Shown one piece after another: positions 17,261 to 44,982 of a stretch of 64,000 nt of DNA. A model generated the notes under the pieces. The model searched no databases. It was not told the origin of the DNA and was given only the letters and a program-made list of their open reading frames with translations. How positions within the stretch are numbered: position 1 is the first letter of the stretch; every line of letters begins with the position of its first letter. Source of the DNA: Anaerolineales bacterium (GTDB lineage: Bacteria; Chloroflexota; Anaerolineae; Anaerolineales; Villigracilaceae); contig JAEURF010000001.1 in NCBI GenBank assembly GCA_016789205.1, forward strand, positions 16,779 to 80,778, in the 5' to 3' direction. Position numbers and translations under genes: made by a program.

Positions 17261-17345
17261 TCTTGTCTCCTTTTACGTCAATCATATTGATTTCAATTCC
17301 AAGCACAATCGCTAAACAGAACCTTAGCGCACTAAGGATTAACTT

Positions 17346-19415: not shown

Positions 19416-19431
19416 AATTCTTTTATTAAAC

Positions 19432-19824: not shown

Positions 19825-19962
19825 ATTACTGTTATTACTCGAATGCCAAAAGACACTTTCGACATTTATCCATGCAATTTCCAGATCACTTATTTACACT
19901 AACAAGTTAAAAGTTTGAGATCAAGTTATTATCCACACAGTAAAAGAAACAGATAGAAACAA

Positions 19963-20066
19963 TATGTTCGTCAAACCACACAAATTGCGCCCTACTTATG
20001 AGCCCGCGCGACGGCTGGACGGCGTGACTGGTAAGAGGGGAACAAAGTTGTGGTTTGACGAACATA
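19963..20066. repeat. 18-bp perfect inverted repeat around a 68-bp GC-rich spacer
   Basis: TATGTTCGTCAAACCACA (19963-19980) / TGTGGTTTGACGAACATA (20049-20066). Confidence 0.9.
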
Positions 20067-20092
20067 ATTAGAAAATGCTAGAATGATTTTGG

Positions 20093-21164: not shown

Positions 21165-21896
21165 CTATATCCGAAATGGATTGAAATCTGTATCATAGTC
21201 ATAGTGATCTATCTGTTCATTTCTTTTGAGGCCGTTTACGATTGCATATGTCAACGGTGTAAAAGCGATCTCTATGGCCACTTTGAAAACATAATTCGTC
21301 AATGTTAGAGTAACAAAGAGAGACCAAGGGAAGACGCCAAACATTGAAGCTACTGCCACGAAAGCTAAAGTGTCCACCAACTCGCCAACTAAGGTACTTC
21401 CAATAGTTCTTGTCCATAGCCAGCGCCCTCGCGTCAAAATTTTCATTTTGGCCAGTATAACTGAATTACTAAATTCGCCCAGCAGGTAACCAGCCAAACT
21501 TGCTAAAACAATTCCACCAGAGCTCATACCTCCTAAAATGGCCGTGAATGCAGAATCACCTGCGTACTGCTGCCAGTTGACTTCCCCTGGTAGCTTGTTA
21601 ACTATCCAAAATGTTGTAGAAGCTATTACAAGACAAAAGAATCCTAGCCAAATTACCCGACGAGAGAGTTGAAAGCCATAAACTTCGACTAAAATATCGC
21701 CAAAAATATAAATAATCGGAAAAAGTAATGTACCAGCATCAAATGCAAGGGGAATACTAAAGATCTTTGTTCCTAAGTCTATGATTTTTGCAGAGGAAGC
21801 AATATTGCTAATAAGTAATACGGCAATAAAAATTGCCAATACAAAGTCAAAATAATAATAAGTCTTTTTCGAATTCAATTTATTTTCCTTTTCCAT
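21165..21896 (-). CDS. yhhQ: Queuosine precursor transporter (YhhQ/Vut_1)
   Basis: SNI..AK, FP..YIFGDILVEVYG, ASLAGYL.GEF.N, W.RTIGST.VGE.VDT and K...E...TP.TY motifs. Confidence 0.93.
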   Translation of the reverse strand: MEKENKLNSKKTYYYFDFVLAIFIAVLLISNIASSAKIIDLGTKIFSIPLAFDAGTLLFPIIYIFGDILVEVYGFQLSRRVIWLGFFCLVIASTTFWIVNKLPGEVNWQQYAGDSAFTAILGGMSSGGIVLASLAGYLLGEFSNSVILAKMKILTRGRWLWTRTIGSTLVGELVDTLAFVAVASMFGVFPWSLFVTLTLTNYVFKVAIEIAFTPLTYAIVNGLKRNEQIDHYDYDTDFNPFRI

Positions 21897-21966
21897 AAAG
21901 ATTTTTTCGAAATTTAGAAAAACAGGATTCGCTGGCGAAATCTATTAAGTCAAAAACCTGAAAACC

Positions 21967-24900
21967 CTAAATAATGTAATCGCTTGGTCGGCGTATGGCA
22001 CGAAATGGATTTAGTTGATTGACTTGATATCCAGGGTTCTGTTGTGCTGCTTCTTGAGTAGCAGTCAAAATATCAGCGTGATTAGCCGTCCATAAAGGGT
22101 GCGCTTCAATTAATATTTTTTGACGAGATGGTTGAACATATCCGTAAAGGGGGCCGAATTTCGTCCGATTCTCATAACCCAATTGTACAAGCATCTTTGG
22201 AAGGGTAATTTCTACCAGTTTTTTCCATGGGTTCACGCTACTTCCCCAATTGCTAACCAAGTCTATTTTCATATTGCCTAGCCCAATTCGAGCCATATCG
22301 AGTGCTAAGCGCCAATCGAGCAAAGGATGATAGCTCATATTTCCATAATCTCGCAAACATTGATTACACGAGACATCACATACATCGCCATGAGGGCTAT
22401 CTAGCCACTTGGCCGCAATGGAGTTAATCGTTGAAGAATCTGCCTGTTCAAGTAACTTTTCAAATTGAGCAGGCTGTCCTAAGAAGGTGCAATATCCAGC
22501 TCCATTTTCTAATTGATCACACAAAAATGCCTCACCGCCTGGTCGATCATTGGAAAGATAAGTTCGAAATCCGGCTTGTAATTCATTCGTGTCAATATCA
22601 AGCTGAACGCAGGCGATCGTCCTTAGCCAAAATGCAAAGGAATACCAGGCTGCTCTACCTTCAACAGTTTGAGGATCTGCATATATACCTTCGGGGAAAT
22701 TATCGATGCCAGCCAATAAAATGTCCGTTGGTCTCTTAGACAGTAAAGCGATTCTCCAGGACATGTTGTCATCGATTCGTACAGGTTTATAAATGGGATC
22801 AGTTGGATATTCTGGCCTGATGGAATATGCTCCACTTCCTTCGTTCTTTTTTCTTGAAACCGTTGCTGTATAAAAATCAAAACCACCTACACCCCCGTTG
22901 TCATTAATCGAAACAATCTGATTCTTGAACGACTTGATATTGGTATTTCGAACGATGGTAGGTGATTGATCTGCATCGAAGTACATAGATGGATGAGTCG
23001 ATCTTGCCATCCATTCAAACTGCCCTTCAAAATCTGTTGGAACCTGATCAGTAAAAAATCCTCGAGGTTCTCTGGCATCTATCGGACGCAAAGTGTTACT
23101 CTTACACACTGGACAAGTTTGTAGCGGAGGTATTACACCACCACTGAAAGGGATAGGAGACGGACCAACTTTAGTAACCGCAGAACAGGAGTTACAGATT
23201 CCAATAATTTCCGAGTTCCCTTCACTCAAGCTAGGTGTCAAGCCAGGCTTGACTGCCACAATTGGACCATTTGGTTGCAGCTCAACCACTCCTACTGCTG
23301 TGTGAACTGCTTTATCTTTAACCGTCTGTGAGCCAGGTGCAAATTGTGATATTGCGATATCCAAATCACGATCAACAACGCCCCATTCAGGTGGCCAAGG
23401 TTGGGATGAATAAGGCCATATTGTATAAAGAGGTCTTACTCGAGTTGGGAAACCAAACATTGGTAATAAGCCTGCGTTGGCAAGCCTTTCGCTTAAAGCC
23501 GTTTGAATATAGCTTGAACTAGTAGATGTCTCATCGATAATTTTTACAAGCTCTGTTCTTAAGTAAGTTACCATTTCGTCCCGGAAATTCTTGAAGTTTT
23601 GGTTTAATCCCCATTCAGTTTGTACGCTCAGGGCATCAATAATATTTTCAAGAATTCCTTCATTTGCCGAGTCGTTAAACCAGTTGAGTACTCTCTCTCG
23701 ATGAACAGGAATCCAATCAGTTGACAATCCAAATTCTCCGTGCACGCTATCTGCGCCATTGGCAGTTTGTGCGATCTGGCTAGCGATACCAGTAGACTTA
23801 AATGCCAACCGAAGCGTTTCTTTGACCAGAACTCGTCTGAAAATACTTTCACTTTTGTTGCTCACATCAATATAGGGGACAGGTGGGGCATCACCTGTGA
23901 TGCTTTCCAAGTGCTGAAAATAATAATCATCATGACTACGTCCACGACAAAACGTGATTGCGAAGGATACGCCCGTACCTCGTCGTCCAGCTCGTCCAAC
24001 ACGTTGCTGATAATTAAATCTTCGAGGCGGCATATTAGAAAGCATTACCGCTAATAGAGATCCGATATCCACACCGGCTTCCATTGTCGTCGTCACACTT
24101 AGTAAATCAACAGATTGAACAGCACTGATTTCACCGTGAACAAAAATATCCTGGAACCATCTCTGACGATCGGGGCGAGTATTCTTGTCTGTTTGCCCGG
24201 TCAACTCCTCACAATTCATACGAAAAGGTTTACCTGATTGCTCTGATAAATAAGTATAGTAATCAAAATTTAATGGAACGGGGGCTTTCTCAAGTTTTAT
24301 CTGACGTTTGCAATCTATGCATATGCCTGTAGCTTCATGTAAATAGAAGGCATGACATGATGGACATCTCCAGCCAGTTAATCTTTCCTCTATTATTTTC
24401 TTTGGTTCTAAAATGAATAATTGTGCTGGATTAATCACCATATTGCTTAATGATGGAATGCCTACGCCAGCTTTTATCAATTCTTGATGAACTTCTTTAT
24501 CAGAAATCCCGACATTGCTTAAATGTTTTAATAAATAGCTCGGCAATGTCGTATCGTTCCCTGGCCAGTACGATGATTTAGCATAAAGGTGTCGTCGTCG
24601 AATACCTAACATACGTATTGTCAGATCTGCTGCCTCAATAATTTTCTGAGTAGGAGTTTGGTTATCTCCTGAACGGAAGGTAACACGACCCTGTCCTAGA
24701 CCTTCAATTGTTCGCGCGGCATGAGGAAATAAGGCGTACATTAACTCCGCTCTCAAGGCAGAATGAATATCTTTGAGATGTTGATCTCTGCCAGCATCCG
24801 AAGGCTCACTAATTGGAAGAATAGTATCCTGATTGTTCCAGTCATAGCAGTCGTACCAAGGTTTTTTCTTCTTTTCCGATTCAAAAACAAGAATTTCCTG

Positions 24901-27753
24901 ACTCACGCCTCCCGGGTTAACGCCGAGTTTTAACAATTGGGTAGACAAAGAAATAGCTAAGCGATCCAGCGAAATTTTTCCTGGGTAGTCTTCAAGGAGT
25001 GCAAGCCATGACTTTCTTGCTGTTAAATTAACTCCTGAAACATTCAACCACCAAGTTAGCGCTTCTGTCAATAAATCGCTGTGACTTTCAGAAAATTTTT
25101 GCCGTGCTAAGCTATCCACCGCCGCGGTAGATTCACTTTGTAGAGCCTCAAAAATTTCAGGGTTTATCGCTTGTAGGGATGACGGTATGGGACCCATTGA
25201 TTTCAGCGTACGTAGAAAACCAATTAAATCACTCCAATAGGTCCTAAGTGACTGTATTAGGGCCATGCGAATTAGATCTCTGTAATGATCTCGTTGCATA
25301 CCTGCTGCTAGCTTTGCTGCATCTTGACGGCTATCCGAGAATATAACAAGTTTTCTGTTTGATCTAGCTCCCGTTTGATTGGCTTCAGGCATTTCGCGCA
25401 TTAACCCCCCGGCCAATACTTGTGCAGCTTTTTGAAATCCAGTGCGATGGTTCCTTAGGGGAGTAGGATTATTTTCATGTTTTGAAAAATCTGTCTCGCA
25501 ACGGGGACAACGAGTTGGGAATGCAGATTCCTCTTTAACTTTTTCAGTATTTGTGTTTCTTGTAATTTTAAGTGTGTAAGTCCAACCTTCTCTACCATCC
25601 TCTGGATTTTTACCTTTAGTATTTTTAACCAACAGACCTGACGTAGGATCTAGCTGGGCTTTAACCCAAGCTCGGTCAAAATCGCCTTGTTTATAAACAT
25701 GAATTGGAGCTGTCTGCCAGTCATTGGGCCAGAAAAGAGCATAATCTGTGTACTTTCGTCTAGTGCTTATTTTATCTGGTACACCTTCTAAATTAATTTC
25801 GTCTGCGGTTATGACGTCTGTAGATTGTCCAATATTTTGTCGATATCCACCAAGAAAAATATCTCCACATACTTCGCAAACAATTAAATCTAAAACTCTT
25901 GAGCCACAAGCATCACATGTTAGCCTATGTGATGCATAGACCGCTCCTACAGACGGTTTCGGATCCTGTCGATCTGCACATGAAGGATGAGAACAGTCGG
26001 GATTGCTGCAAACCCACAAATTCTGTAGATTATGGAAGAATAAATGTCCACGGACAGGTTGGGCCGAAGCTTTATTTTCCCTATTCTGTGAAAACGCCAA
26101 TGCTAACAAGAATCCACGCATAGCTGGCGAGACTAGTTCTGTGGAAACAGAATCGTTCGATGAATAATCAAATAATACCTTGTCTAGATCTGTAATCTTT
26201 GTTGGTCTTACCGTTTCATCTTTGTGAAGGCTCTGGCTCGCATCTCTTAAAATATCAGCAGCAGTGACAAATCCATCCGCCGTTGCACCTAGTTTATTTA
26301 GGGCTTCGGCAAGTTTTATTTTGGGCTCAACTCGATCATTGCTAGGATACTTTAGCTCCATGGCTAGATCCGATATGGCCAGAGGATTTTCGAAGGGAGG
26401 ACTCATTGGGTCTAGAGGATCTGGTTGAATTTTTGCGGCGAAATTTTCGAAGGCTCTTTGGTGTTGTCTTAGAACAAATCGGGCGTTTTTTCTGGGAGGC
26501 TCTTGTTCGCCTTTAATAAATTCAAAATTATCACGTCCAAAGAATTCTTGGAGGAATTTTTTGCCTTCATTTGAATTATCCAAGCTGGCTGAAGTAGCCA
26601 ATATGCGCAATTGCTTAGATTCAGGATCTAAGCCAAGACGGTTTAACAACAGACGAAGTATATAGGCAACTTCTGTTCCAGGGGTTCCACGATAAGAATG
26701 TAGTTCGTCGATAATCAGATGAAACAATCTTTCGGGCTTCCCGCTTTCTTTGCCAGGATCTTCCATAAGCCATTGCCGGGTAGAATCAAAGATTGAATCC
26801 TCTATGCTCCGCATAAGCATGATATTTAGCATTGAATAATTTGTAATTAGGATATCGGGGGGTGTCTGTTGAATATCCCAACGAGACCACATTTCCCCAC
26901 TCATGGGATCAGGGAAATACCATTGCATTTCGGATGTGGCCTCATCGTCAGGGTTTGCATCTACTACATCTATGATTTTCCTATAAGACTCATCGACCTT
27001 GTTAAGTTCCCGCCTCAACCGACTTAGTGTAGTAGAGTTTTCAGGGCCTGGAACCGATGTAAGCGATGTATATCTCCCATAGGTAATCCTGTTTCCACCA
27101 CGATCACGATCCAACCAATTAGTAATTTCTGTAGAGGAAAGGGTTTGGCGTAAACGCCTTAACTGGTCCTCGACCAGCGCGTTTAATGGATACAAGATTA
27201 GCCCGCGCACTGCGGCTGGACGGTTCATATGTTCCCATTGTTTGACTCGATTTGCACCGGCTTTGCGCCACCACTCTCTAGTTGATGATGGACGTGATGC
27301 GTTGGGCCAAATCATAGATTCATTTGCTATTTGGGCCAACAAAGGCAAAAGGAAAGCTTCTGTCTTTCCTGAGCCAGTTCCTGTAGTTACCACAACATCT
27401 TTGGAATCTATTACGCTCGCTTTTAAGGCGTCCCATTGATGCTGATATAAAGGACGCGAAGACGGGAATAGCGTTTTTGCAAGGTTTTTAAGATCGGAAT
27501 AACCCGCGGGAAGACCTGCCTCTATTAATTCGGCACTCGCTTGATCTATGTCTATATCCCCATTTGTACTTCTGGCAGCTGCATATACAGGTACCGTCTC
27601 CAGTAAAGGAACCTGGCTCAATGTTCCAAGCTTTCTCAAAAGTTCATCTCGCTCGTTTATAAGTGTTTCATCACGTAGCGGAAAAGCACTTTTGATATAC
27701 ATTCGGTAAATCTTTTCGAGGCGCAGATAAGTACCAACTACATCATGTAACAT
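21967..27753 (-). CDS. Giant SF2 DEAD/DEAH helicase with C-terminal DUF1998/MrfA Zn domain (DruE/DpdJ-like)
   Basis: LYQHQ, TGTGSGKTE, YPLNALVEDQ, TNYSML, DELH, SAS, FSDSRQDAA, TTTMEAGVDIG, QRVGRAGR, several CxxC and CDVSCNQCL; GGAG RBS before ATG 27753. Confidence 0.92.
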   Translation of the reverse strand: MLHDVVGTYLRLEKIYRMYIKSAFPLRDETLINERDELLRKLGTLSQVPLLETVPVYAAARSTNGDIDIDQASAELIEAGLPAGYSDLKNLAKTLFPSSRPLYQHQWDALKASVIDSKDVVVTTGTGSGKTEAFLLPLLAQIANESMIWPNASRPSSTREWWRKAGANRVKQWEHMNRPAAVRGLILYPLNALVEDQLRRLRQTLSSTEITNWLDRDRGGNRITYGRYTSLTSVPGPENSTTLSRLRRELNKVDESYRKIIDVVDANPDDEATSEMQWYFPDPMSGEMWSRWDIQQTPPDILITNYSMLNIMLMRSIEDSIFDSTRQWLMEDPGKESGKPERLFHLIIDELHSYRGTPGTEVAYILRLLLNRLGLDPESKQLRILATSASLDNSNEGKKFLQEFFGRDNFEFIKGEQEPPRKNARFVLRQHQRAFENFAAKIQPDPLDPMSPPFENPLAISDLAMELKYPSNDRVEPKIKLAEALNKLGATADGFVTAADILRDASQSLHKDETVRPTKITDLDKVLFDYSSNDSVSTELVSPAMRGFLLALAFSQNRENKASAQPVRGHLFFHNLQNLWVCSNPDCSHPSCADRQDPKPSVGAVYASHRLTCDACGSRVLDLIVCEVCGDIFLGGYRQNIGQSTDVITADEINLEGVPDKISTRRKYTDYALFWPNDWQTAPIHVYKQGDFDRAWVKAQLDPTSGLLVKNTKGKNPEDGREGWTYTLKITRNTNTEKVKEESAFPTRCPRCETDFSKHENNPTPLRNHRTGFQKAAQVLAGGLMREMPEANQTGARSNRKLVIFSDSRQDAAKLAAGMQRDHYRDLIRMALIQSLRTYWSDLIGFLRTLKSMGPIPSSLQAINPEIFEALQSESTAAVDSLARQKFSESHSDLLTEALTWWLNVSGVNLTARKSWLALLEDYPGKISLDRLAISLSTQLLKLGVNPGGVSQEILVFESEKKKKPWYDCYDWNNQDTILPISEPSDAGRDQHLKDIHSALRAELMYALFPHAARTIEGLGQGRVTFRSGDNQTPTQKIIEAADLTIRMLGIRRRHLYAKSSYWPGNDTTLPSYLLKHLSNVGISDKEVHQELIKAGVGIPSLSNMVINPAQLFILEPKKIIEERLTGWRCPSCHAFYLHEATGICIDCKRQIKLEKAPVPLNFDYYTYLSEQSGKPFRMNCEELTGQTDKNTRPDRQRWFQDIFVHGEISAVQSVDLLSVTTTMEAGVDIGSLLAVMLSNMPPRRFNYQQRVGRAGRRGTGVSFAITFCRGRSHDDYYFQHLESITGDAPPVPYIDVSNKSESIFRRVLVKETLRLAFKSTGIASQIAQTANGADSVHGEFGLSTDWIPVHRERVLNWFNDSANEGILENIIDALSVQTEWGLNQNFKNFRDEMVTYLRTELVKIIDETSTSSSYIQTALSERLANAGLLPMFGFPTRVRPLYTIWPYSSQPWPPEWGVVDRDLDIAISQFAPGSQTVKDKAVHTAVGVVELQPNGPIVAVKPGLTPSLSEGNSEIIGICNSCSAVTKVGPSPIPFSGGVIPPLQTCPVCKSNTLRPIDAREPRGFFTDQVPTDFEGQFEWMARSTHPSMYFDADQSPTIVRNTNIKSFKNQIVSINDNGGVGGFDFYTATVSRKKNEGSGAYSIRPEYPTDPIYKPVRIDDNMSWRIALLSKRPTDILLAGIDNFPEGIYADPQTVEGRAAWYSFAFWLRTIACVQLDIDTNELQAGFRTYLSNDRPGGEAFLCDQLENGAGYCTFLGQPAQFEKLLEQADSSTINSIAAKWLDSPHGDVCDVSCNQCLRDYGNMSYHPLLDWRLALDMARIGLGNMKIDLVSNWGSSVNPWKKLVEITLPKMLVQLGYENRTKFGPLYGYVQPSRQKILIEAHPLWTANHADILTATQEAAQQNPGYQVNQLNPFRAIRRPSDYII

Positions 27754-29086
27754 CGTTTCTCCGATCAATACGTGCACCTAATTTGGCAGCAATGAGTTCA
27801 GCTAGGGATAAAGATACATTCTTGTAAATTATCCCATCCTTATGAATTGTGGGCAATTCTCCAGATGCTAAAATTAATGATCTTTCGTATATATCTGGAA
27901 TACGATCGCCTATGGGTATATAGAAATAATTTTCGGGATAAGCATGAATGAAAATTGGAATGCGTTCCAAGTGTCGATTCGCTAAGTACCTGAGTCCGTA
28001 CCAGTCTCCCTGAAACCATTTGCCTTGACCTGGGTCAAAAAAGTAATAATAATCAACTGGGATACCGTCCACGTTATGATGGGTTAATTTATACATCCCA
28101 AATTCATCAGGAGACTTTACCCATTTCGAGAAATCTTTTCCCGTCCACTTTAGGATTTTATAGAGTTCTGGAAATATGGAGATTTCTCTCAGAAAACTCT
28201 GTTGCCAGCCTTGAATGTTAGGTAGCAAATCCGCTATTTTCTTAGACATATTTCCAAGCAACATGAGTTGCGTATTGAGCTGTCGCGAAATTTCAGGGAG
28301 TAGAGTCTGAACTTCAAGATTCGACTTGAAACTGATGAAGACACTATCTGGTGCTCCAAGGTTACTTTGAGCAGTTACCTCTTGATTTCGAAACGAATTT
28401 ATTAAATTTGGAGACTGCCCACCTGCGATAAAATATTTGTGATCCTGATCTTCACTTTCAATCTTAACAAGACAGGATGGGGCAATGGTCCAGTGTCCCT
28501 CGTCAATATACTCGCTATGTCCTAAAGACCGTAATCGGCGAAAAAGAAATCTTGGTTCGTTGGCTTTTTCCAATTTTAGTTCCTTACAAGCAGACCGATA
28601 ACCTTGCCAACTTCCGTTTCCGTGGGCTGATAACCAATATAATAGATGGTTGTAAGATTGCCTCGCTTTTTCGTCTGGAACAGGTTCTTCAGACAGATCA
28701 AAAGGGTTGTAATCGATAGAAGTTTCAATTGCCTGAGGCATCCATTCAGCAAGTTGACGTGTATAGGCAATTTCTCTAAATCTTTGAAGCCAATGCTTCT
28801 TGAAATCCTCTTGAAAAATACATTCACTAGCGGGGAATATATTAATATGTTGTAAGCGTAACCACTTTTCCAACTCGATAATTTCTGATGGAGGCTGTCC
28901 AATTACCTCACTATTTATCGCGATAAAAAAATATAATTCATCTGGCCGTTTTGTTTTTGTTGGTTCTGTACAGATTCTAGGAGCATATTGCCCGAGATTC
29001 CTCTTTTTAATCTCCTTAACAACCTTATCTGCTATAGCAGTTGGTGTCCCGCGCGTTCTGTAACCTCGATACCATAACTCATCCAT
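27743..29086 (-). CDS. Hypothetical defence protein (position and size like Druantia DruD)
   Basis: 447 aa, overlaps the helicase start; LLYWLSA.G.GSW, LRSLGHSE and WTIAP segments; the family match is an inference. Confidence 0.7.
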   Translation of the reverse strand: MDELWYRGYRTRGTPTAIADKVVKEIKKRNLGQYAPRICTEPTKTKRPDELYFFIAINSEVIGQPPSEIIELEKWLRLQHINIFPASECIFQEDFKKHWLQRFREIAYTRQLAEWMPQAIETSIDYNPFDLSEEPVPDEKARQSYNHLLYWLSAHGNGSWQGYRSACKELKLEKANEPRFLFRRLRSLGHSEYIDEGHWTIAPSCLVKIESEDQDHKYFIAGGQSPNLINSFRNQEVTAQSNLGAPDSVFISFKSNLEVQTLLPEISRQLNTQLMLLGNMSKKIADLLPNIQGWQQSFLREISIFPELYKILKWTGKDFSKWVKSPDEFGMYKLTHHNVDGIPVDYYYFFDPGQGKWFQGDWYGLRYLANRHLERIPIFIHAYPENYFYIPIGDRIPDIYERSLILASGELPTIHKDGIIYKNVSLSLAELIAAKLGARIDRRNDVT

Positions 29087-29092
29087 ACTCTT

Positions 29093-30796
29093 CTATCCCT
29101 CCTTAACCCATGCACCAAATATGGATTGATTCTCCATTTGTATTGATCCATGTTTTTCCGGCGTCGACAATGTAATAGCGTCCCAGTCTATAATGGCTAC
29201 TTGTCGTTCTCTGCCAGAATCAGAGTCGGATTCAGATCTTGCTCGAATTAGGTAGCGGCCAGGCACATCCCATTTGGGTTGCTTCTTATCATTAGAATTT
29301 ACAGTAAAACTTTCATAAACTTCGTCCTCACCAACTCTAATAATCTGTAGTTCAAGGTCTCTTTCGAATGTAAAAATTGTAATCTCAGGTCCGTGATTGA
29401 CGAGCCAGGCATTGGTATTGGGATCTTTCAGTCCACCATTTAAGGAAATAGTCGTCGAGTTTCGAGGTCGCAGTTGGTTTAATAAATTTTTTTGTGCGAT
29501 GGAGACACCGGTCCAAGCATCACTAACGACTACAAGATCGGAAAACTCCAACCAAGCACCTATTTCTTTCGGGGTTTTCGACCAAACCAGTAATCCTTCA
29601 TTTTTCAAGACTTTGAGGTCGGTTTCAAGCTCCTTTTTTGCAAGTAGCAGGAAAGGGATACCTAATTCGGGCCTTTCCTCCCATGAAGCAAATATTCCGG
29701 AATCACGGAATTCCGGGTCGGGCAATAAAATCCAAAAATCTCTTTTTGGCAAAATTAATTTATTGGCTACACGGCTACTATTTGTAATTAATTCCAATCC
29801 CTTCTCGATTTCATCAATCGCAATATTCCACTTCAAGGTCTCAAACCAACCAGGCCTATCTACAATTAGTGCTGCATTTTCGCTTTTAAATGTAACTGTT
29901 ATCTCTATATCTTGAATGGATCGCTTCGGCTGTTTAGGTAGCAGATAAAATTGTGATTCATTTGAACGAAAATTCTCAGTTCGATACAAACCCATCAGCA
30001 GAGGGTTACTAAAAGTGTCTCTAAACGCTTCAGTGCGTTCGGATTGCTTTCCACTTGCCACCCACATTCCAAAAACCTCGAATATCGCATCCGCCAGCGC
30101 TTCATATCTTTGAGAGCCAAGTTTTCCATCTACTTCTATCAGCTCTTGCAAATATTTAGTCAGATAATTGAAATCATGACGCAGTTTCAGGATGATTTCA
30201 TCTTTATCCAAAAAATCAGGATATTTGTTTTGATAGTTGCTAAAAAAGTTCCATAATGAATCTTTATCTGACTGTCTGAGCAGCGGTTGGGATCTGGCGT
30301 ATGTAAAATATCGCTCACCACGCATCGAAGCTGTGGGTTCATAACCATTAACTCTTAGCCAGTTATTCCAATTTTCCCATAAGCTTTTCTCTGCTCCACC
30401 TTCCATTGCTGATGGCCTGCCTTGATCAACCGGAAGGCCCAACATTGAATTAAAGTGATAGAAGTAATCCCCTCTAGCAACGCCTTGATCAACATTATCA
30501 CCCATACGATAAGCTGCAAGTACCATAAAGCAAAGAAACCCAAAGTATGGGGGAGTTTGGTGATGTTGTTCCTGAAAGATAATGGGCTCTACAGATAAAT
30601 GGTTTAAACGAACATTATTATTACGTATGCAGCGTTCCTGTATTACTTCGAGAAAATTGCCCGGTAAGGTGTTCAACGTGCCGGAAATGAAATTAATCGC
30701 TTCATCGTCAATTGCCAAGTAAATACGGGATCCTCGAGGCATCCCTGAAATTACATATTTTAACAATGCTTCATTCCACTCTTCATAACTAGCCAT
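29093..30796 (-). CDS. Hypothetical defence protein (position and size like Druantia DruC)
   Basis: 567 aa, 6 nt upstream of the next gene; YEEWNEAL and YARSQPLLR segments; the family match is an inference. Confidence 0.7.
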   Translation of the reverse strand: MASYEEWNEALLKYVISGMPRGSRIYLAIDDEAINFISGTLNTLPGNFLEVIQERCIRNNNVRLNHLSVEPIIFQEQHHQTPPYFGFLCFMVLAAYRMGDNVDQGVARGDYFYHFNSMLGLPVDQGRPSAMEGGAEKSLWENWNNWLRVNGYEPTASMRGERYFTYARSQPLLRQSDKDSLWNFFSNYQNKYPDFLDKDEIILKLRHDFNYLTKYLQELIEVDGKLGSQRYEALADAIFEVFGMWVASGKQSERTEAFRDTFSNPLLMGLYRTENFRSNESQFYLLPKQPKRSIQDIEITVTFKSENAALIVDRPGWFETLKWNIAIDEIEKGLELITNSSRVANKLILPKRDFWILLPDPEFRDSGIFASWEERPELGIPFLLLAKKELETDLKVLKNEGLLVWSKTPKEIGAWLEFSDLVVVSDAWTGVSIAQKNLLNQLRPRNSTTISLNGGLKDPNTNAWLVNHGPEITIFTFERDLELQIIRVGEDEVYESFTVNSNDKKQPKWDVPGRYLIRARSESDSDSGRERQVAIIDWDAITLSTPEKHGSIQMENQSIFGAWVKEG

Positions 30797-30814
30797 GTAG
30801 GTCCTTTTACAAAT

Positions 30815-32788
30815 CTAAGCCTGCCGCCAATCGATTAGCTCTTCGTGTTGGAGCGTAATTTTCTTTAATACATCTTTTATGATGGACTGCTTGCGACTCA
30901 CCTGTATTACCATCGTGTCCATTGCGCGAGTGAGAGGTATCATGAGCCATCTCGCAGCAAGCAATTTGGCTTCCGAGTCATTTGAGTTATTTGATCTGAT
31001 TTGATTTAGTTTAGTTAAATAAAACTCGTCCAGTCCATACAATATCGTAGACCAACCTTCCAGTCCACGACAAGACTCGTATTGAACAATTCTCAGTTGG
31101 TCGTTATCTGTTGGATAAGAATCTCTTCCTATGGAAAGAGTACCATCCCACGTCTTTATGTTCCAGCTTTGAAGCAGTCCTGGAACATAATTTGCATTGA
31201 CTAAGGAGGATATAGATAATTGTTGACTCATGGAAGAAGGTATACAAACCAAGAGATCTATAGGCTCATTTCCCGCTTGTTTCGCACTATTCATGATTTC
31301 ATGAATTAATTCTTCAGTGGATTCAAGTTTATCAGTCTCGAAAATTACTATTCTCCCGCCTGGGACCAGCTGATTTGGTTCCCACTCAGATTGTTGTAGA
31401 CCAAATTCTCCGGCAAAAGACGTGATACATGATGTAAGGCCTGCCTTCATCCGCAAGCATCGTCGCAACGGCAATATTCTATATTGTTCTTTCTTTAGAT
31501 CACCGCGCCAATCAGCTGGTATGTCTTCCCGAATTAGTTGATCTATCCCATCCGCAATTGTAAAAAAATTATAACCAAATAACTTAAAGAGTATATCTCG
31601 CTCGTCACTTGGCCAATCTTGACCTTCGTCGACAAAAATAAAATCCCAGTCAAATTTGTATGCTTCAGATTGCAGCATTGTTTGAATATCTTCGTATGTA
31701 ATTACGCCTGAAGACAATAGTCGCAGTATTTCTTTTTTGTGTTCGGAATATTTTTCTAGGAATTCACCTTCACCTGCCACGATAACTCCCAGCGTTTTCA
31801 TAATTTGATAGAAAAAACTATAACTTGTCTGAATTTGGATGCTCTTTTCCGCGGCAACATCACCAATTCCCATGATTGTCATTAATCGTCGTAAGTCTGC
31901 AACTAGTGCGCGATTATAGGTAAGTACTAATATTCTTGAAGCTCTTTCGTCATATAGGTGCTTAGCTAATTGCAAAAGACTAATTGTTTTCCCTGTACCG
32001 CCTCGACCACGCAATATCATTAGCTGTTTGCCAACCAATGAATCTAGGCCAAGCTCTAGGGAAAGTCTTTGATTTATTTGCTCCATTCGCCGTCGATCCA
32101 TGTTCGTTGGAGTAATTTCCTTGGTGAGCATCAACGCGATATTTTCCAACATTTCACGGGATTCGAGGTCAGAATTAAGTGTCCATTGTCCGGCATATCG
32201 TTGGGGTGCGTGAAGTTGTCCAGCAACATTGATGAATAACAACCAATTCGCTTCGCTTCCCAATATGTTATGTGGTCGGTTTGGGAGATCTACGGAAGGA
32301 ACGTTTCTCAGCCAAATTAACGGCACAATCCATGGGACTCGTCTAAAGCCTTGTAACCTCAAATAATTGATAATGGATTGCTTTTGTTCTTCATTTTGAT
32401 GTGTGGCATTGTGCCATTTCTTTGATGTAGGATATTTAACCTCTACGTTTGTGCCCGTAAAGCGAATGTTAGGGGAGGAGTGTTCTTTTACCTCAATTGC
32501 AAAACAAAAACTCTCGACAACAATTTCTTCCGGCAACTGAATCTCGCCATTAGGATTGATAAATTGTAAAAAGGGTTTATAAGTTATTCCGGACTTAAAT
32601 ACGCCTAATAGAAGTAAATCGACATCTCGCACACGTTGTCCATGGCATTTTATCCCCACTAATATGTAAATATGGTCTTCTGTACTATCTTTTAGACTTG
32701 GCCACGCTTCGATGATTAGCTGCTCAAGTTTGATGGCAGCCTGATATTCACTATTGTTTGGGTCAATGTGTCCGGAAACACGGATCAT
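30815..32788 (-). CDS. NERD nuclease fused to SF1-like helicase
   Basis: RDVDLLL...AIEVK PD-(D/E)XK motif; GRGGTGKT, LTYN, FVDEGQD, GLE and LTRA helicase motifs. Confidence 0.85.
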   Translation of the reverse strand: MIRVSGHIDPNNSEYQAAIKLEQLIIEAWPSLKDSTEDHIYILVGIKCHGQRVRDVDLLLLGVFKSGITYKPFLQFINPNGEIQLPEEIVVESFCFAIEVKEHSSPNIRFTGTNVEVKYPTSKKWHNATHQNEEQKQSIINYLRLQGFRRVPWIVPLIWLRNVPSVDLPNRPHNILGSEANWLLFINVAGQLHAPQRYAGQWTLNSDLESREMLENIALMLTKEITPTNMDRRRMEQINQRLSLELGLDSLVGKQLMILRGRGGTGKTISLLQLAKHLYDERASRILVLTYNRALVADLRRLMTIMGIGDVAAEKSIQIQTSYSFFYQIMKTLGVIVAGEGEFLEKYSEHKKEILRLLSSGVITYEDIQTMLQSEAYKFDWDFIFVDEGQDWPSDERDILFKLFGYNFFTIADGIDQLIREDIPADWRGDLKKEQYRILPLRRCLRMKAGLTSCITSFAGEFGLQQSEWEPNQLVPGGRIVIFETDKLESTEELIHEIMNSAKQAGNEPIDLLVCIPSSMSQQLSISSLVNANYVPGLLQSWNIKTWDGTLSIGRDSYPTDNDQLRIVQYESCRGLEGWSTILYGLDEFYLTKLNQIRSNNSNDSEAKLLAARWLMIPLTRAMDTMVIQVSRKQSIIKDVLKKITLQHEELIDWRQA

Positions 32789-32947
32789 ACAACACACCCT
32801 CCAGAAGTCAAAAAAACAATTACTGGGATTTTACACCATCCGGCGAGCAATCTGCAGTTTTAAGTGGCTTCTATCAATGCACAGGGTATAATAATTCTGG
32901 GCAACTGGTTGCCCAGAACTTGGTTGACGATCATTAAGGCTAAAAAG

Positions 32948-33385
32948 TTGATTATTAAAGCTAATATAGAATATGTTGACCTTATTAAAAAGATCGCTGA
33001 TGCCAATCGTCACGAGTTGGGTTTTACTTTGCGTATCCAAATTCAAGAGGCAGTGGAGCAAGACCGAGTTCTTGTCAGCCTAATTGAAGGCAAATTAGTC
33101 GGATTTCTAATATATCGCCATCGGAAGAAGGATACGCAGACGACATTAGCTGAAATATGCATTAGTAAGGAGTTTCGTGGAGAAGGTATAGGAAGAGAAC
33201 TTGTAAATGCATTGATAAATGAAAGTAAGAAAATGTCCCGGTCCTATATTCAACTTAAATGCCCTGTTGGTTTGTACGCCAATGAGTTTTATAAACAACT
33301 TGGTTTTCATTGCATAGCAACGCAGCCGGGAAAGACGAGAAGCCTAAATGTTTGGAGAATTCAAATAGATAAGGCAGAGGATTAA
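32948..33385 (+). CDS. GNAT acetyltransferase
   Basis: FRGEGIGREL acetyl-CoA-binding motif and ANEFYKQLGF; TTG start at 32948 inferred; stop overlaps the next ATG. Confidence 0.9.
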   Translation: MIIKANIEYVDLIKKIADANRHELGFTLRIQIQEAVEQDRVLVSLIEGKLVGFLIYRHRKKDTQTTLAEICISKEFRGEGIGRELVNALINESKKMSRSYIQLKCPVGLYANEFYKQLGFHCIATQPGKTRSLNVWRIQIDKAED

Positions 33386-34383
33386 TGGAATTCGTTGCAT
33401 CAATGACACATCGAGCAGATGAGTTAAGGAAAATTGCTCATCTTTGGGAGACATCCGGAGACAAACGTCAACCATTTTCCCGTACCATATTTACTCCCTT
33501 ATTCGCTCGCCCAAGTGTAAGCACTTTAATGAAAGAGATGTTTGAATTACCAGGCGGGGTTATTTTTGACTCTGGGGGATATTATGTTCAACAGGGAGTC
33601 GTTACTTACGAATCACTATATCAAAAATTAATGGAATTTTACATAAGTAATCAATGGGCTGACTGGTATGTATTACCCGACTACGTACCTACCTCCTCTC
33701 TATCAGTAGAGGAAGTAGATAGCAGGGTAAAAGCTACTGTGACCATTAGTAAATTATTTCAGACCGAGATGCCGGAAAACCTTCGGAAGAAATGTATACC
33801 CGTAGTACAGGGCCATACTTTGGAACAGATTTTATTGTGTGTAGAAACTTATGCTGAAATGGGAGTTTCGTATGTCGGATTTGGGAGCTTTGGGACTAGC
33901 GGAGATAATAATTCAATCAATACCATTACCCGACAATCGATCCAAATGATAGAGTTTCTAAAACGCCATACTGAGAAATACGGTTTGCGGGTTCATTTAT
34001 TTGGGATTGGGACGCCAACAGTATTGCCACTATTTCGCGAACTTGGGATTGATAGCTTTGATAGTTCCTGTTGGAGTCGAACAGCAGGATATGGAAATGT
34101 TTATTTGCCTTTTATGGGACGTCGTAATATTACGGGCAGAATGCTTCGTGAAATTGGAGGAGAGGCATATACTAAAGCAAAATTTTTAGAATTACGGGAT
34201 GCTTCAGGACATGATTGTCCATTTTGTAGCGATGTTGATAAATTAATTTCCAACCGTTTATATCAAATGATGCACAATTTATATGTTTTGCTTGACACTG
34301 TAGATTTGCTAAATGCAGGGAAGAACTTTGTACCTGAAATTGTTGGTGTGCAGAAATCTCGTTATTCAAATTTCCGGAAATAG
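33385..34383 (+). CDS. tRNA-guanine transglycosylase-family protein (DpdA-like, probably DNA-acting)
   Basis: FDSGGY, LPD, PVVQG, HLFGIG, DSFDSS (catalytic Asp) and Zn site HDCPFC...HN; lacks the TP.FMP start of housekeeping Tgt. Confidence 0.88.
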   Translation: MEFVASMTHRADELRKIAHLWETSGDKRQPFSRTIFTPLFARPSVSTLMKEMFELPGGVIFDSGGYYVQQGVVTYESLYQKLMEFYISNQWADWYVLPDYVPTSSLSVEEVDSRVKATVTISKLFQTEMPENLRKKCIPVVQGHTLEQILLCVETYAEMGVSYVGFGSFGTSGDNNSINTITRQSIQMIEFLKRHTEKYGLRVHLFGIGTPTVLPLFRELGIDSFDSSCWSRTAGYGNVYLPFMGRRNITGRMLREIGGEAYTKAKFLELRDASGHDCPFCSDVDKLISNRLYQMMHNLYVLLDTVDLLNAGKNFVPEIVGVQKSRYSNFRK

Positions 34384-34390
34384 ATATACA

Positions 34391-35212
34391 ATGTTGAAAC
34401 CCACAAGTTTTCATGTACGTCATGATCTGCAACCTGTATTAACGTATGAGCTCTTGAATTTGTTTTTGTCTAAGCCAGAGGGACAGACCCAAGAAGAGTT
34501 AGAACATTCCGCAAATATTTATGGATTTCGACTTAGAGAACGTAAAGATTATAGTAAATTAATAAAATCTCTCATGGAACTTGACGTTTTGCGTGAAGAA
34601 GATGACAGATTTCTGCTTACTGATAAAGGTGAAATAATATCTCGATTGATTATTTATCAACGCGATTTGCTTGCTGAATTTATTCATTTTCTATATTATT
34701 CCAGTTTTGATCTAGAGCCCAATAAACGCTTTTCATGGAGTTACAGAACAGTTTGCGATGCACTGTGGCTTTCTGCTCCAAGTGTTATCAATCGTGACAG
34801 TCTAGTGAATCATGTTACCAGAGAAGCAGTTACAATATTTGAAGAAAACGGAATTTCTTTTAGTGCTTCCAGTGTTTCTGGGGTGATTAATTGGTTGGTT
34901 GAGTTAATTCCTAATTGTGTTGTTGTTCATGGAACAGAGCAACAATTCGTTCGCCGAGAGTATTGTTCAATCGAACTTTTTACTCTAGCACTAAACCACG
35001 AATACAGAAGGAAAAGCGCAGTCGATCTTGCTTATGTAACAATCGATAGTTCGTTTCGTGAAGAGATTTGCAGATTATGCTTAATAAATCCGGATAAGTT
35101 TTCGGAAATGCTTTCACTTGCTGAAGCTAGCTTTAATTGTGTAGATGTACGCCGCGAGCGTGGCGATAAGATATCTATGTCAAAATTCGAGTGGAATTCT
35201 TTGGAGAATTGA
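34391..35212 (+). CDS. Hypothetical protein, possibly tandem winged-helix
   Basis: LIKSLMELDVL...FLLTDKG wHTH-like wing; 7 nt after the TGT gene and 7 nt before the ATPase. Confidence 0.7.
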   Translation: MLKPTSFHVRHDLQPVLTYELLNLFLSKPEGQTQEELEHSANIYGFRLRERKDYSKLIKSLMELDVLREEDDRFLLTDKGEIISRLIIYQRDLLAEFIHFLYYSSFDLEPNKRFSWSYRTVCDALWLSAPSVINRDSLVNHVTREAVTIFEENGISFSASSVSGVINWLVELIPNCVVVHGTEQQFVRREYCSIELFTLALNHEYRRKSAVDLAYVTIDSSFREEICRLCLINPDKFSEMLSLAEASFNCVDVRRERGDKISMSKFEWNSLEN

Positions 35213-35219
35213 GAAACTT

Positions 35220-38200
35220 ATGCCACATTCTATTGAAGGTTTATCAGTTATTGCGAATAAGGCTCCAGTGGTTGGAACACATGTTGGCGGCTTCAGTGCG
35301 ACAAGCGTAAAACAAACCCAGGAAAGGTATAGCAAGGAGGCACTGACATATGTGCGTCCCAAGGAGATTTCTTCATATCAACAACGTTTCTTGGATCGCT
35401 TACTCCGAAAAAAAACGTCGATAGGATGTATTGTTGCTCCATTTGGATACGGCAAGACCAGTGCGGCTATAGATACATGGCAAGTTTGCAATGAAAATAA
35501 AATTTTAACCGTTCTGCCGTTCAGCTGTAGTTCGATCGCAGAGATGGGAAAGGCAATTGCGACGGGTATAGAACATAGATTAGGGCATAGCTCTCGGGGG
35601 GCAAAGAAAGTCAGATCTGCCTACGAATCCTATCTGGTCTCATCGGCCAAACGGCTAGCTGAACAAGACACAATTAACTATAAAATAAATTATGACACGG
35701 CCTTGCGTAGCATAGAAGACAAAATCGAGCGGGGTTATCTTCACATTGATGCTACAGGCAATCATCTCTTGGGTTTCTTTGAGGAACTCACTCATATAGT
35801 CGTAGAATCTGGTTTTGATGGATTGCTGATCATTGTTGATGAATTTCAACAGTTTCTTGGAAATATCAATAAAACTGTAATTACTAATTTTCGTACCTTG
35901 GTCTGGGGGTTGAGAACCCGTGGCACTTTGCCCCTCGGCTTATTAATTACTATGGATCCAGATACCGAGAGGAATTTGTCAGAACGAGCGGGAGATATAT
36001 TGCATCGAATAAAAGAGGATAATTTATATCTTGATTTTACAGATGCTTACGAACGAGAATTTGCATCACTCTTATGGACGAAATATGCTCAAAATTTCCA
36101 GTTTACGGGAAAAAATTCAAAAATAGTTGATAAGGCAACTTTAGATTCTATTGGTCAAATCTGTGAACGCCATGATCTTAGTAATGGCCCACGTACCGTA
36201 ATAGACATCTTTCAAAGAATTGCTCATCTCTATTCAAAGCGTCAAAGATCTTATACTCCGGTTGATCTTATCGATGACTTTTTAAGTGGGGATATACGCT
36301 TTGATGGTGACCGGAGTAAGATAGCTTCACTCGTAACTGAACTCACTAGTTATGAATATATAAAAACCTCTTCCAAAAGACTCCAAGCCCTTAAGCTGAT
36401 ATCAGCCTTTCCACGAGGTTGCTCAAAAGAGGTCGCTGACGCCTATGGATTAGGCAATGTGTTGACGGAATTATCCGATGCACTTAGAGGGGAAGTACTT
36501 ACCGAATTACCTGAAGGTATCGCCCTAATAGATTTACAACGCGTGGGCAAACCGCAGAATAAATTAAACATTATCCTTAAGAAATATTGGATGCAGATCA
36601 CCGAGGGTGAAATTGTTACGGATCGCGCAGTCGCTCTGTTTGCCCAATATGCGATTTCTGCGATTTTCCCACCATTTCGAAATATATTATCTGGATGGAG
36701 TAGAGAAGAACCTAACTATCGTCTTACTCCATCTGGTAGCTATACACAAATATATGAGGGATCTTTCTTTGAGGACTTTCCTCGAAGACGTATCGCAATT
36801 GAAATATGTAGAAAAAAAGATCAAATTTCACGACCTGAAGACTCGTACGATTTTCGTTTTGTATTTGTTTTACAAAGATCTACGGAAAACAATACTGAAC
36901 CTATATTTGACAAAAAGAATAAGACCTTTATTCTGGGATTAAGAATCGACTTACCTTTCGGTATACCCATGCCACGTGACCTTCGTTGGATTGAGGATTA
37001 TCTTAGACCAGTTGAGATGTCACCAGCGGTGGTTTTATCTCTGATTGATTACATAAACTCTCAGGCGCCTAAAATTGATGATGTTACCGAGGGCGAACTT
37101 CAAAGGATTCAGGCATATTCGAAGAAGCTAAATGACTTCCTGATCTCTGTTATGTTTGGTCCGGAGTTGTTTGCAAGTCTTGGAATAAATTTTGTTTCTA
37201 GAGGAGAACAGGCATTAAAACAAGCCATTTTTTATGTACTAAAACAGATTTATCCAGATTACCAAACCCTTATTAGTTCTAATCAATGGGAAACGATATG
37301 CAAAACCTATATAGATGCACTAAAGAAATCGAATCTTGCTCAGACGCGTGGCTTGGAACGTCTCGAAGGTGAGAAGTCTGAGATAGCTGCGGTTTTTGGT
37401 TTTCGAAATCACGCTGGATTTGAAAGCCAAATTAGGCAATTTCATAGACTTGCAGTTCTTGAAGATTGGATAGGTAGTCAAGGGGCCATAAGATTTCAAA
37501 GTCATATTGGGGAAGGCGTTGTCCTGAAAATAATAACTGATAAAAAGAACCTCAAACAAGAAGCTTTATTTCAAGAAGCGAGGAAGTTTGGCTATCTTCC
37601 TGAAGAAACTCATTATTTATTGGAATATTTGTTACTCCGTGGATATATAGAAAAGGACAAATATGGACATTTCAAGGCTGCTCAGACTTTGTCGAAAGCT
37701 GAGCTGGTCAAAATAGCAAGAGACAGTGAAATCGAAGCATCAGAAATGGTCAGTCTTGTCAAATTCCCAGATTTAGAAGATCTGATTTCTCAAAAATTAT
37801 CCAAAGTAAAAGACATGTCCAGACTCACAAAAACACAAATTCGAATTTTAGAATTTCAGCGAAGGGTTCAGTCTTTACGGCCAGTCATCATCAAGGAAAT
37901 TCAAGGTTTACTTGGAAAATATCGCTCGGATCTATACGAGAAGAGTGACTTACTTAATCAGGAGATTCCAATTTCATCAACGGGCCTGTTTATTGATGCA
38001 CATATTAATGGAGTGCAACGAAAAATTATTCTAAAATCCAAAGTTATGCTCGATAAGTCAACCAAACTATCTACAACTATAAATGAGATGCTGAAGTTAT
38101 TATCAAAGCGGGATTTAACATCTACTATCGTTGAAGATATTCGTGAAAACAAAGCTTTGTTTGTTGAAGCGGACAAAAGTATTGCTGAACTTCAAGAGGT

Positions 38201-38675
38201 CATTGAGTTAATCAATCAGCATATACAGTGGGTTCAGTTAGCGGATTATTTGCTACTGATAAAAGAGTATATTGAAACATTAAAGCCCTACGTTAATGTA
38301 AATCCCTTTGTCACTCGGTATGAAGTAATTGTCCGAAAGCTGATGGAGGCGTTATCTGTGAAGGGCATTAACATATACTTTGATCTGTATCGTGAATATT
38401 CAGTGAAAGTATTGAAGCTTTACGATGAAATTGCGATCGCAATAAAGGCTGCAAAGATCAATGATCAGATGCTTGGAGGACGAATACTGAATAAAGCTTC
38501 CCATCTGGAATCTGGCCAAACCTTATTAAAGGCTTTGCGACGAAAAAATGTTTTGCTGAAAGACATTGTTCAAACTGGCAAATGGGATGCGGAGAGGTTA
38601 TTGGGTGCTTTGATTAGTCTCGAAGATGATGGGAAAGTGAAATTATCTATCATTTCAGGAAAGCCAGATAGATAA
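35220..38675 (+). CDS. Large P-loop ATPase with helical/coiled-coil C-terminus
   Basis: APFGYGKT Walker A, LIIVDEFQQ Walker B, GPR sensor; about 1150 aa. Confidence 0.85.
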   Translation: MPHSIEGLSVIANKAPVVGTHVGGFSATSVKQTQERYSKEALTYVRPKEISSYQQRFLDRLLRKKTSIGCIVAPFGYGKTSAAIDTWQVCNENKILTVLPFSCSSIAEMGKAIATGIEHRLGHSSRGAKKVRSAYESYLVSSAKRLAEQDTINYKINYDTALRSIEDKIERGYLHIDATGNHLLGFFEELTHIVVESGFDGLLIIVDEFQQFLGNINKTVITNFRTLVWGLRTRGTLPLGLLITMDPDTERNLSERAGDILHRIKEDNLYLDFTDAYEREFASLLWTKYAQNFQFTGKNSKIVDKATLDSIGQICERHDLSNGPRTVIDIFQRIAHLYSKRQRSYTPVDLIDDFLSGDIRFDGDRSKIASLVTELTSYEYIKTSSKRLQALKLISAFPRGCSKEVADAYGLGNVLTELSDALRGEVLTELPEGIALIDLQRVGKPQNKLNIILKKYWMQITEGEIVTDRAVALFAQYAISAIFPPFRNILSGWSREEPNYRLTPSGSYTQIYEGSFFEDFPRRRIAIEICRKKDQISRPEDSYDFRFVFVLQRSTENNTEPIFDKKNKTFILGLRIDLPFGIPMPRDLRWIEDYLRPVEMSPAVVLSLIDYINSQAPKIDDVTEGELQRIQAYSKKLNDFLISVMFGPELFASLGINFVSRGEQALKQAIFYVLKQIYPDYQTLISSNQWETICKTYIDALKKSNLAQTRGLERLEGEKSEIAAVFGFRNHAGFESQIRQFHRLAVLEDWIGSQGAIRFQSHIGEGVVLKIITDKKNLKQEALFQEARKFGYLPEETHYLLEYLLLRGYIEKDKYGHFKAAQTLSKAELVKIARDSEIEASEMVSLVKFPDLEDLISQKLSKVKDMSRLTKTQIRILEFQRRVQSLRPVIIKEIQGLLGKYRSDLYEKSDLLNQEIPISSTGLFIDAHINGVQRKIILKSKVMLDKSTKLSTTINEMLKLLSKRDLTSTIVEDIRENKALFVEADKSIAELQEVIELINQHIQWVQLADYLLLIKEYIETLKPYVNVNPFVTRYEVIVRKLMEALSVKGINIYFDLYREYSVKVLKLYDEIAIAIKAAKINDQMLGGRILNKASHLESGQTLLKALRRKNVLLKDIVQTGKWDAERLLGALISLEDDGKVKLSIISGKPDR

Positions 38676-42009: not shown

Positions 42010-42140
42010 ATTTACAAGATAACCCAATTTGTGTTTCTTGACTATTTAAATGAAGTATAGAAAGGGGATAGGGAATAGGCTAGTAAAAGGCTAGGTAGGT
42101 GAATAATTGCATCACCCAAAGGTGGTACCCATTAGGGATA

Positions 42141-42545: not shown

Positions 42546-42554
42546 AGGGTCAGG

Positions 42555-44950: not shown

Positions 44951-44982
44951 ATACTTAATGTAGCAAATACAGAAATAATTTG

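Follow-up and report, generated by a model that had tools for sequence, protein, structure and literature searches.

What do the two operons that diverge at about 32.8 kb in a stretch of DNA from an Anaerolineales bacterium do, and do they belong to a defense system already described? The stretch (64,000 nucleotides; positions 16,779 to 80,778 of contig JAEURF010000001.1, assembly GCA_016789205.1) is called the window here, and the locus occupies 21165-38675 of it. The right arm carries genes for a GNAT acetyltransferase, a TGT-family base-exchange enzyme, a BrxA-like winged-helix protein and a BrxC-like ATPase (together, the module), and the left arm carries Druantia genes. The reading we favor, at a probability of roughly 0.6, is that both arms form one restriction-modification (R-M)-like defense system, in which the module would write a 7-deazaguanine self mark and Druantia would destroy unmarked DNA.

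All nine open reading frames (ORFs) were confirmed at their places in the window. As a preliminary description of this DNA had reported, they form two tightly packed operons, the right-arm junctions being -1, 7 and 7 nt when the 273-amino-acid (aa) protein is read from ATG 34391 and the 1151-aa ATPase from ATG 35220. The left-arm products are 660, 567, 447, about 1927 and 243 aa long, with a gap of 70 nt between druE and yhhQ. An assembly chimera was ruled out, because independent contigs from two other studies (X2, 32113-32918; X3, 32588-33397) bridge the divergent junction. A promoter scan at the divergence point gave results at chance level. No RNA data set was listed as containing this sequence, run X10 probably being DNA.

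Linkage of the Two Arms across Genomes

Scanning GTDB with an alignment of 36 TGT rows yielded 66 loci with a module TGT, and whole-genome searches covered 50 of these (49 genomes). The winged-helix gene was present in 64 of the 66 loci, the ATPase gene in 59 and the GNAT gene in 51, most gaps falling on short contigs; in many loci, GNAT is fused to TGT. Half of the loci (33) carry genes for a PglZ-like protein and HerA and were equated, on composition, with BRC (BREX-Related Capture), a computationally described system of PglZ, DUF6079, STAND, DUF4007, HerA, GNAT and TGT, reported from 45 taxa with HerA universal (PMC12839542, available sections). DruF lies within 10 kb of TGT in 16 of the 66 loci, and none of these 16 has PglZ. 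Counted by genome, the module adjoins a Druantia arm in the window's genome and in 16 others. STAND occurs in 1/16 DruF loci, and HerA is represented in them only by a 47-aa remnant beside yhhQ in L012. A strong PglZ profile match was obtained in just one of the 16 Druantia-linked genomes, where it belongs to a second, separate BRC locus. In the window's own genome, which is 53.6% complete, PglZ and STAND were not found and the BRC HerA query gave no tblastn match; the ORF at 14245-15729, of HerA-like or coupling type and without such a match, was rejected as the BRC HerA.

DruE shares the TGT contig in 14 of the 16 DruF loci (one DruE being broken), and the remaining two TGT contigs end inside the arm. 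The hybrid was found across Chloroflexota and three other phyla, in four gene orders: divergent, as in the window; one co-directional run (L011/L083, L030, L082); Dru genes first (L022); and convergent, on the conjugative plasmid of Oscillatoria PCC 7112, where a plasmid search recovered both arms. A quick TGT tree contained a clade of 18 rows (SH-aLRT 96), 17 of them Druantia-linked and one truncated, and a quick DruE tree contained a subclade of 16 rows (SH-aLRT 100), of which 14 are TGT-linked, one (L081) is unlinked and one (L118) lies on a 6-kb contig. Identities of TGT and DruE were correlated (Mantel rho 0.54, n = 14, 0/5000 permutations). These sequence comparisons support co-divergence of the Druantia-linked TGTs and DruEs. 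The earlier proposal that the two arms are one unit, to be checked by co-occurrence, is borne out to this extent: in other genomes the arms co-occur and co-diverge.

One DruF locus (L062) and four DruE3-like loci fall among the BRC TGTs, which suggests further arm swaps. In L025, L026, L034 and L045, the module is linked to genes for a DruE3-like helicase and for a partner of 1100 aa without annotation, an arrangement like Druantia III. In L008, L012 and L062, DruF is fused to a sigma70-r4/alphaCTD protein whose gene precedes many BRC TGTs. Upstream of TGT in L015, L017, L019, L020, L038, L040, L051 and others lies a gene for a variable protein of 590-1140 aa, with sigma70 r2/r4, RNA polymerase alphaCTD and HARE-HTH domains; it was matched in 36/66 loci, some weakly, and is apparently an undescribed eighth BRC-associated gene.

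The hybrid is rare, because an even sample of 400 genomes of the class gave one match to the DruF profile (canonical, in a genome without TGT) and seven strong matches to the TGT profile. Among 400 genomes of the phylum, a DruF search gave five matches, the three close ones with the module (probably loci already counted) and the two distant ones without it. A metagenome scan with a single DruF found two loci, one with the module in one gene run and one with Type III R-M genes instead. DruF was not found in any of six genomes of the same genus as the window's.

Genes of the Right Arm

The GNAT gene (32864..33385, plus strand; PF00583/PF13508) probably starts at TTG 32948, giving 145 aa, because its homologues begin there. 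It is followed by the TGT gene (33385..34383, plus strand), whose product belongs to the BRC subfamily, matches PF01702 at 42.7 bits and PF23859 at 27.6 against 27, the latter partially, and shares 35-46% identity with TGTs from PglZ/HerA loci. Its fold matched archaeal TGT with Z 25.3 (root-mean-square deviation, rmsd, 2.8; 282 residues aligned), DpdA and bacterial TGT each with 21.2, and Cap10 with 17.2. Residues D62, D99 and D226 and the zinc ligands H276/C278/C281/H297 are invariant in 63/63 near-full-length homologues. The active site agrees with D95/F99/D130/H181/D256 of DpdA, D226 aligning to D256 and Q142-G143 to H181-G182. From these residues, the enzyme looks catalytically intact.

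The next two genes had been listed in the preliminary description as a 273-aa unknown and an ATPase; both are present, but by comparison with the Atlas they are BrxA/DUF4007-like and BrxC/DUF6079-like rather than unknown. The 273-aa winged-helix, putatively DNA-binding protein (34391..35212, plus strand) gave TM values of 0.71 with DUF4007 clusters and 0.68 with BrxA clusters, both below the naming bar, and features of 0.91 to DpdG. The AAA+ ATPase with a coiled-coil tail (35220..38675, plus strand), which is SspC-like as well, scored 0.91-0.93 to DUF6079/BrxC clusters; its Walker A (GYGKTS) and Walker B (IVDE) motifs are intact, and one homologue bears the annotation "BREX system ATP-binding domain-containing protein". 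Both proteins are homologous to proteins in PglZ/HerA loci. PADLOC gave only scattered weak matches on the alignments of the two (SspC 1/25, BrxD 3/25), and Protein Data Bank sequence searches with their profiles gave no result. When TGT and the 273-aa protein were modeled as a complex, the score was 0.65 against 0.00 for the best control, at least 91% of contacts were shared between runs, and the partner had a pLDDT of at least 88. The mark used in this test was reached by 116/157 solved and 2/215 mismatched pairs, which is a rough guide here, as our own alignments were used. On this model, the BrxA-like protein is the predicted binding partner of TGT.

Downstream of the ATPase gene in L002-L007, L010, L012 and L014, there is a second BrxA-like/BrxC-like pair (about 270 and 1330 aa, BRC-sized) with an intact Walker A motif, which the window does not have. 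In the BRC-type Methanocaldococcus loci L047 and L048, a different GNAT is encoded upstream of TGT.

Genes of the Left Arm

Read from the divergence point, the minus-strand arm begins with a NERD PD-(D/E)xK nuclease fused to a superfamily 1 (SF1) helicase (30815..32797), an accessory and variable gene (NERD+UvrD model, E 2.6e-5; DVD..EVK, Walker A and VDEGQD motifs). DruF (29093..30796, 567 aa) follows, with E values of 1.7e-18 to DruF2 and 1.5e-14 to DruF4; its AF2 model (pLDDT 83.8) has a helical N-terminal domain and tandem beta-sandwiches, the last of which, at residues 445-543, is Ig-like (Z 10.0, rmsd 2.5, 89 aligned). DruL (27743..29086; 447 aa, a long form) gave E 1.4e-14 to DruL4. In a canonical fused DruF of 1026 aa, one end corresponds to DruF and the other to DruL (hhalign 99%; 99.0% for DruL with the C-terminal part). 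DruE (21967..27750), a YprA/DUF1998 superfamily 2 helicase of the Druantia II/IV clade whose start is probably near 27750, scored 1574 bits with the PADLOC DruE4 model (over 1-1933), 1518 with DruE2 and only 45 with DpdJ, and has Walker A, DELH and four-Cys motifs. The accessory yhhQ (21165..21896) encodes a YhhQ/Vut_1 queuosine-precursor transporter (PF02592, 155 bits; TIGR00697, 100 bits against a cut-off of 51).

Type IV Druantia consists of DruE, DruF and DruL without DruM and DruG (PMC8565338, as far as available). PADLOC found DruE with adjoining DruF and DruL, and no match to DruM or DruG among the nine locus proteins. Judged from these profiles, the left arm is a Druantia type IV system (DruF, DruL, DruE) with NERD-SF1 and YhhQ, and not the "DruC-D-E-like" effector that had been suggested at first. 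The NERD-SF1 protein is likely the cutting enzyme of this arm, because the Vsr domain predicted at the end of DruE in types I and II is inactive (available portion of PMC12458937) and the motifs of NERD-SF1 are intact. Its gene occurs in 5/16 DruF loci, and in L081 and L082; where it is missing, a gene for a UvrD-type helicase follows druE in four loci, one of which also has an Mrr-type nuclease. The DruF model, with its helical head and tandem beta-sandwiches, resembles the published outline of the single-stranded DNA (ssDNA)-binding DruH. This is an architectural resemblance to the published description only, because hhalign of DruF with the DruH-sized 1100-aa partner of DruE3-like loci gave 2.6%, leaving profile homology unsupported. 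A Foldseek search with the DruF model returned no result. In L082 (10001-16238), DruF-DruL is duplicated in tandem before DruE, and queD lies upstream of a GNAT-TGT fusion.

Precursor Supply and the Predicted Mark

Several loci carry genes for precursor synthesis near the module. In Ktedonobacter, queC-queD-queE-queF directly follow druE, with the QueF motif intact; queD stands before GNAT-TGT in L082; diverged QueF-like genes occur in L010, L012 and L014; and a Haloplanus BRC locus has queDEC and a QueF-like gene beside GNAT. The transporter had been taken at the outset as evidence that the arms belong together. That argument stands insofar as precursor genes recur near the module, but YhhQ alone is weak evidence, because its gene adjoins the module in the window and in only 4/66 loci (copies about 50% identical are in L009, L012, L013 and L015). 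YhhQ was found in 30/49 genomes, mostly away from the module.

In phages, the amine of dPreQ1 is methylated or formylated by an enzyme encoded beside the transglycosylase (DpdM/DpdN), according to the available part of PMC10516641, in which an acetyl derivative has no occurrence. These phage genes provide a precedent for tailoring beside a transglycosylase, although they serve counter-defense and not host systems. Since QueF points to preQ1 and phages tailor its amine, the linked GNAT leads us to predict, speculatively, that the mark may be N-acetyl-preQ1, made by acetylation of preQ1. No report of N-acetyl-preQ1 in DNA was found in the literature searched.

A Thermocrinis Great Boiling Spring (GBS) virus has adjacent GNAT and TGT genes (L130:3953-5243; 40% and 39% identical, respectively) beside sliding clamp and polymerase genes and without other module genes. 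Such a pair would be expected if the mark is on DNA and a virus profits from imitating it. A word search of the Thermocrinis GBS virus paper found no discussion of the pair, and an IMG/VR scan with the TGT alignment gave no result.

Proposed Mechanism and Alternative Explanations

In the proposed system, YhhQ would import preQ0 or preQ1, which other loci would make with queCDEF. The BrxA-like protein is predicted to bind TGT and, with the BrxC-like ATPase, to present DNA to it, replacing DpdB. In Ssp systems, SspB/SspC partner the writer. TGT, to judge from its invariant catalytic residues, would exchange a site-specific guanine for a deazaguanine, and GNAT might, speculatively, acetylate the preQ1 amine to give N-acetyl-preQ1. 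DruE with DruF and DruL would unwind unmarked DNA, which the NERD-SF1 protein would cut. Two further points are in favor: the window's genome holds a separate canonical tgt besides the module TGT, and methyltransferase modules are reported in Druantia I and II in the literature available.

A number of observations weigh against this system. Precursor supply is often unexplained, because QueC was above the cut-off in only 14/49 genomes and three genomes (G404, G410, G414) gave no QueC, YhhQ or QueT in whole-genome searches; nor was QueC found in the window's own, 53.6%-complete genome. By fold, TGT resembles DpdA no more than it does tRNA TGTs, and it reached 32 bits on the DpdA model NF041059, whose cut-off is 200. 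The BrxA and BrxC labels denote Atlas look-alikes, neither being given by PADLOC for the window copies, and 7/44 blindly picked neighbors also pass the complex test. The Mantel and tree tests take no account of host kinship. The viral TGT is frameshifted before the zinc site in its record, the zinc-site region lying in another frame past the annotated stop. The module was not nearby in six canonical Druantia II/IV loci, and L081, a NERD-DruF-L-E locus of the same DruE subclade, lacks TGT and has a Type III R-M pair. A domain that would read the mark was not identified. A DruE need not depend on a mark, because the defense by type III Druantia works through ssDNA and leaves the host unmarked (two preprints, as far as available).

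The last points lead to the explanation that competes most with ours, namely that two self-sufficient defense modules travel together for synergy and that Druantia IV senses ssDNA and reads no mark. Druantia III is described, in the sources available in part, as synergizing with neighbors such as Zorya II and ARMADA; L081 and the canonical type IV loci manage without TGT; and the module also lies beside MADS-like (L041) and DinG/RecQ/SNF2 (L046) genes. We nevertheless regard this explanation as unlikely, since a right arm without PglZ/HerA has no effector of its own, PglZ and Druantia share 0/16 loci, and the linkage persists through four gene orders, with a BRC-associated protein fused to DruF. 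It is more doubtful that the substrate of TGT is RNA or a protein-bound deazaguanine, as for Cap10 in type IV CBASS, and that TGT regulates the system without any DNA mark. An archaeal tRNA TGT is its top fold match, Cap10 offers, in what is available of its description, a precedent for a repurposed defense TGT, and the modeled partner covers residues near the active-site face. Yet the zinc site kept in 63/63 of the family is absent from Cap10, as far as that description goes, the locus has neither a CD-NTase nor a QueC-like Cap9, the partners of TGT are of the DNA-binding BrxA/BrxC types, and a double-stranded DNA virus carries the GNAT and TGT genes beside its replication genes. The lowest standing, by a little, goes to an attacking right arm, in which TGT would excise or tag invader guanines, or GNAT would be a toxin, and Druantia would load on the lesions. 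The covalent intermediate of TGT chemistry, the many hosts without a visible precursor supply and the loading of DruE on ssDNA or damaged structures (in sources available in part) suit it, but the recurring yhhQ and queCDEF linkage indicates base insertion, and a virus would gain from a mimic mark and not from an attack module.

Beyond the self-marking system that we favor, we tentatively raise a broader idea, to which we give clearly less than even odds. GNAT-TGT-BrxA-BrxC may be a stand-alone, swappable DNA writer of N-acetyl-preQ1, repeatedly plugged into PglZ/HerA, Druantia IV, Druantia III-like and possibly MADS-like and RecQ/SNF2 arms, with the GNAT and TGT pair taken by the hot-spring virus to mimic the mark. 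In L041 with L105-L106, the module lies beside MADS-like mad6-7-8 with Mre11/Rad50-like genes, and in L046 with L103, beside DinG-RecQ, SNF2 and Type I R-M genes; these neighbors are possible further effector arms.

Comparison with Known Systems

The genes of the locus do not all map onto one described system, as the preliminary description had anticipated: GNAT, TGT, DUF4007/BrxA-like and DUF6079/BrxC-like genes are four of the seven parts of BRC, whereas the window has a Druantia IV arm where BRC has PglZ, STAND and a "universally retained" HerA. The marking arm is less novel than had been claimed, since the GNAT, TGT, BrxA and BrxC set, and the idea of a GNAT/TGT deazaguanine or acyl self mark, were already put forward for BRC (PMC12839542, available sections), but the exchange for Druantia is new. 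The main text of that paper does not mention Druantia, YprA, DUF1998, QueC or YhhQ.

The left arm agrees with Druantia type IV (PMC8565338) and the type II-like "type IV CoCoNuT" (PMC12458937), both available in part, in having DruF, DruL and DruE in order and no DruM/DruG. The window-type subclade differs from canonical Druantia IV in a shorter DruF (about 570 against 660-690 aa) and a longer DruL (about 445 against 295 aa), in linkage to the TGT module and not to a methyltransferase, and in an added NERD-SF1 or UvrD helicase. The supplement of the YprA preprint classes DruE on a Chloroflexus islandicus contig as type II-like, with no mention of TGT in the portion available (PMC12458937).

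Like Dpd (DpdA-K, PMC10164549), the locus has a TGT paralogue that keeps the catalytic residues of DpdA, partners resembling DpdG and DpdH/BrxC, a helicase of the YprA family and nearby precursor genes; unlike Dpd, it lacks DpdB, DpdC, DpdE, DpdF and DpdK, has DruE in place of DpdJ, and includes a GNAT. Canonical Dpd was rejected, with TGT far below the DpdA cut-off, DpdJ (NF041067) at 44.6 bits against 800, and no DpdB or DpdC match among 15 proteins scanned, which likewise gave none for SNF2, RecQ or PLD, as had been noted before. BRIGADE, a separate haloarchaeal hybrid, similarly combines a YprA helicase with DpdG, DpdHI/BrxC and deazaguanine genes; its reported occurrences are all in halophilic archaea, where it has PLD nucleases and an ARMADA-like YprA, and no DruF/DruL or GNAT is described for it in the available portion of PMC12458937. 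It was rejected, as the helicase scores as DruE2/4, PLD has no match and the nearest homologues are from Chloroflexota. Type IV CBASS (Cap10) was rejected as well, given invariant TGT zinc ligands and no CD-NTase or QueC-like Cap9 found, and so was TALON, since NERD is present but the helicase is DruE2/4 and there was no TBP or TPR-CSD match in the nine proteins.

No literature joining this TGT module to Druantia was found; subscription journals lay outside the search, and the BRC supplement could list such loci. The available portions of the CoCoNuT paper and the Cap10 preprint hold no such link. The locus is a hybrid of two known kinds and not categorically new; what is new is that the PglZ/HerA arm of BRC is swapped for Druantia. 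By its left arm, it is a member of Druantia IV, and it would work like a Dpd- or BREX-type marking system without being a member of BRC or Dpd.

If the favored reading is true, Druantia IV gains a non-methyl self mark, and a BrxA/BrxC scaffold, with no DpdB, can support the insertion of deazaguanine into DNA. Two named strains, Chloroflexus islandicus isl-2 and Oscillatoria PCC 7112 (where the locus is on a conjugative plasmid), make the GNAT/TGT proposal for BRC testable by a single predicted mass, and an enzyme that exchanges a DNA base at a specific site, together with acylation, could serve as a labeling tool.

Genomic Surroundings of the Locus

The locus is set among mobile-element genes, including two tyrosine recombinases, an orphan N6-methyltransferase, PolB and ParA. 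These surroundings (window 12284-20989 and 38763-52484) comprise the two integrases, the P-loop protein at 14245-15729, a SprT-like protein, the methyltransferase, PolB, HD-domain and TPR-HTH proteins, and ParA. No att-like repeat pair was evident among the 20 largest repeat families shown. Repeats with an 8-bp period lie at 51139-51529 and a tRNA-Lys gene at 59524-59596. A 104-bp segment at 19963-20066, flanked by perfect 18-bp inverted repeats, lies upstream of a tyrosine recombinase gene (20093) and a Dam-like methyltransferase gene (19824, minus strand). Its inverted junction was seen in contigs of three runs from three studies, and the segment is likely an invertible switch. Farther along, at 55740-58224, an AAA ATPase and an HNH nuclease are encoded, similar to Septu or PARIS (AriA, E 3e-38; PtuA, E 2e-24).

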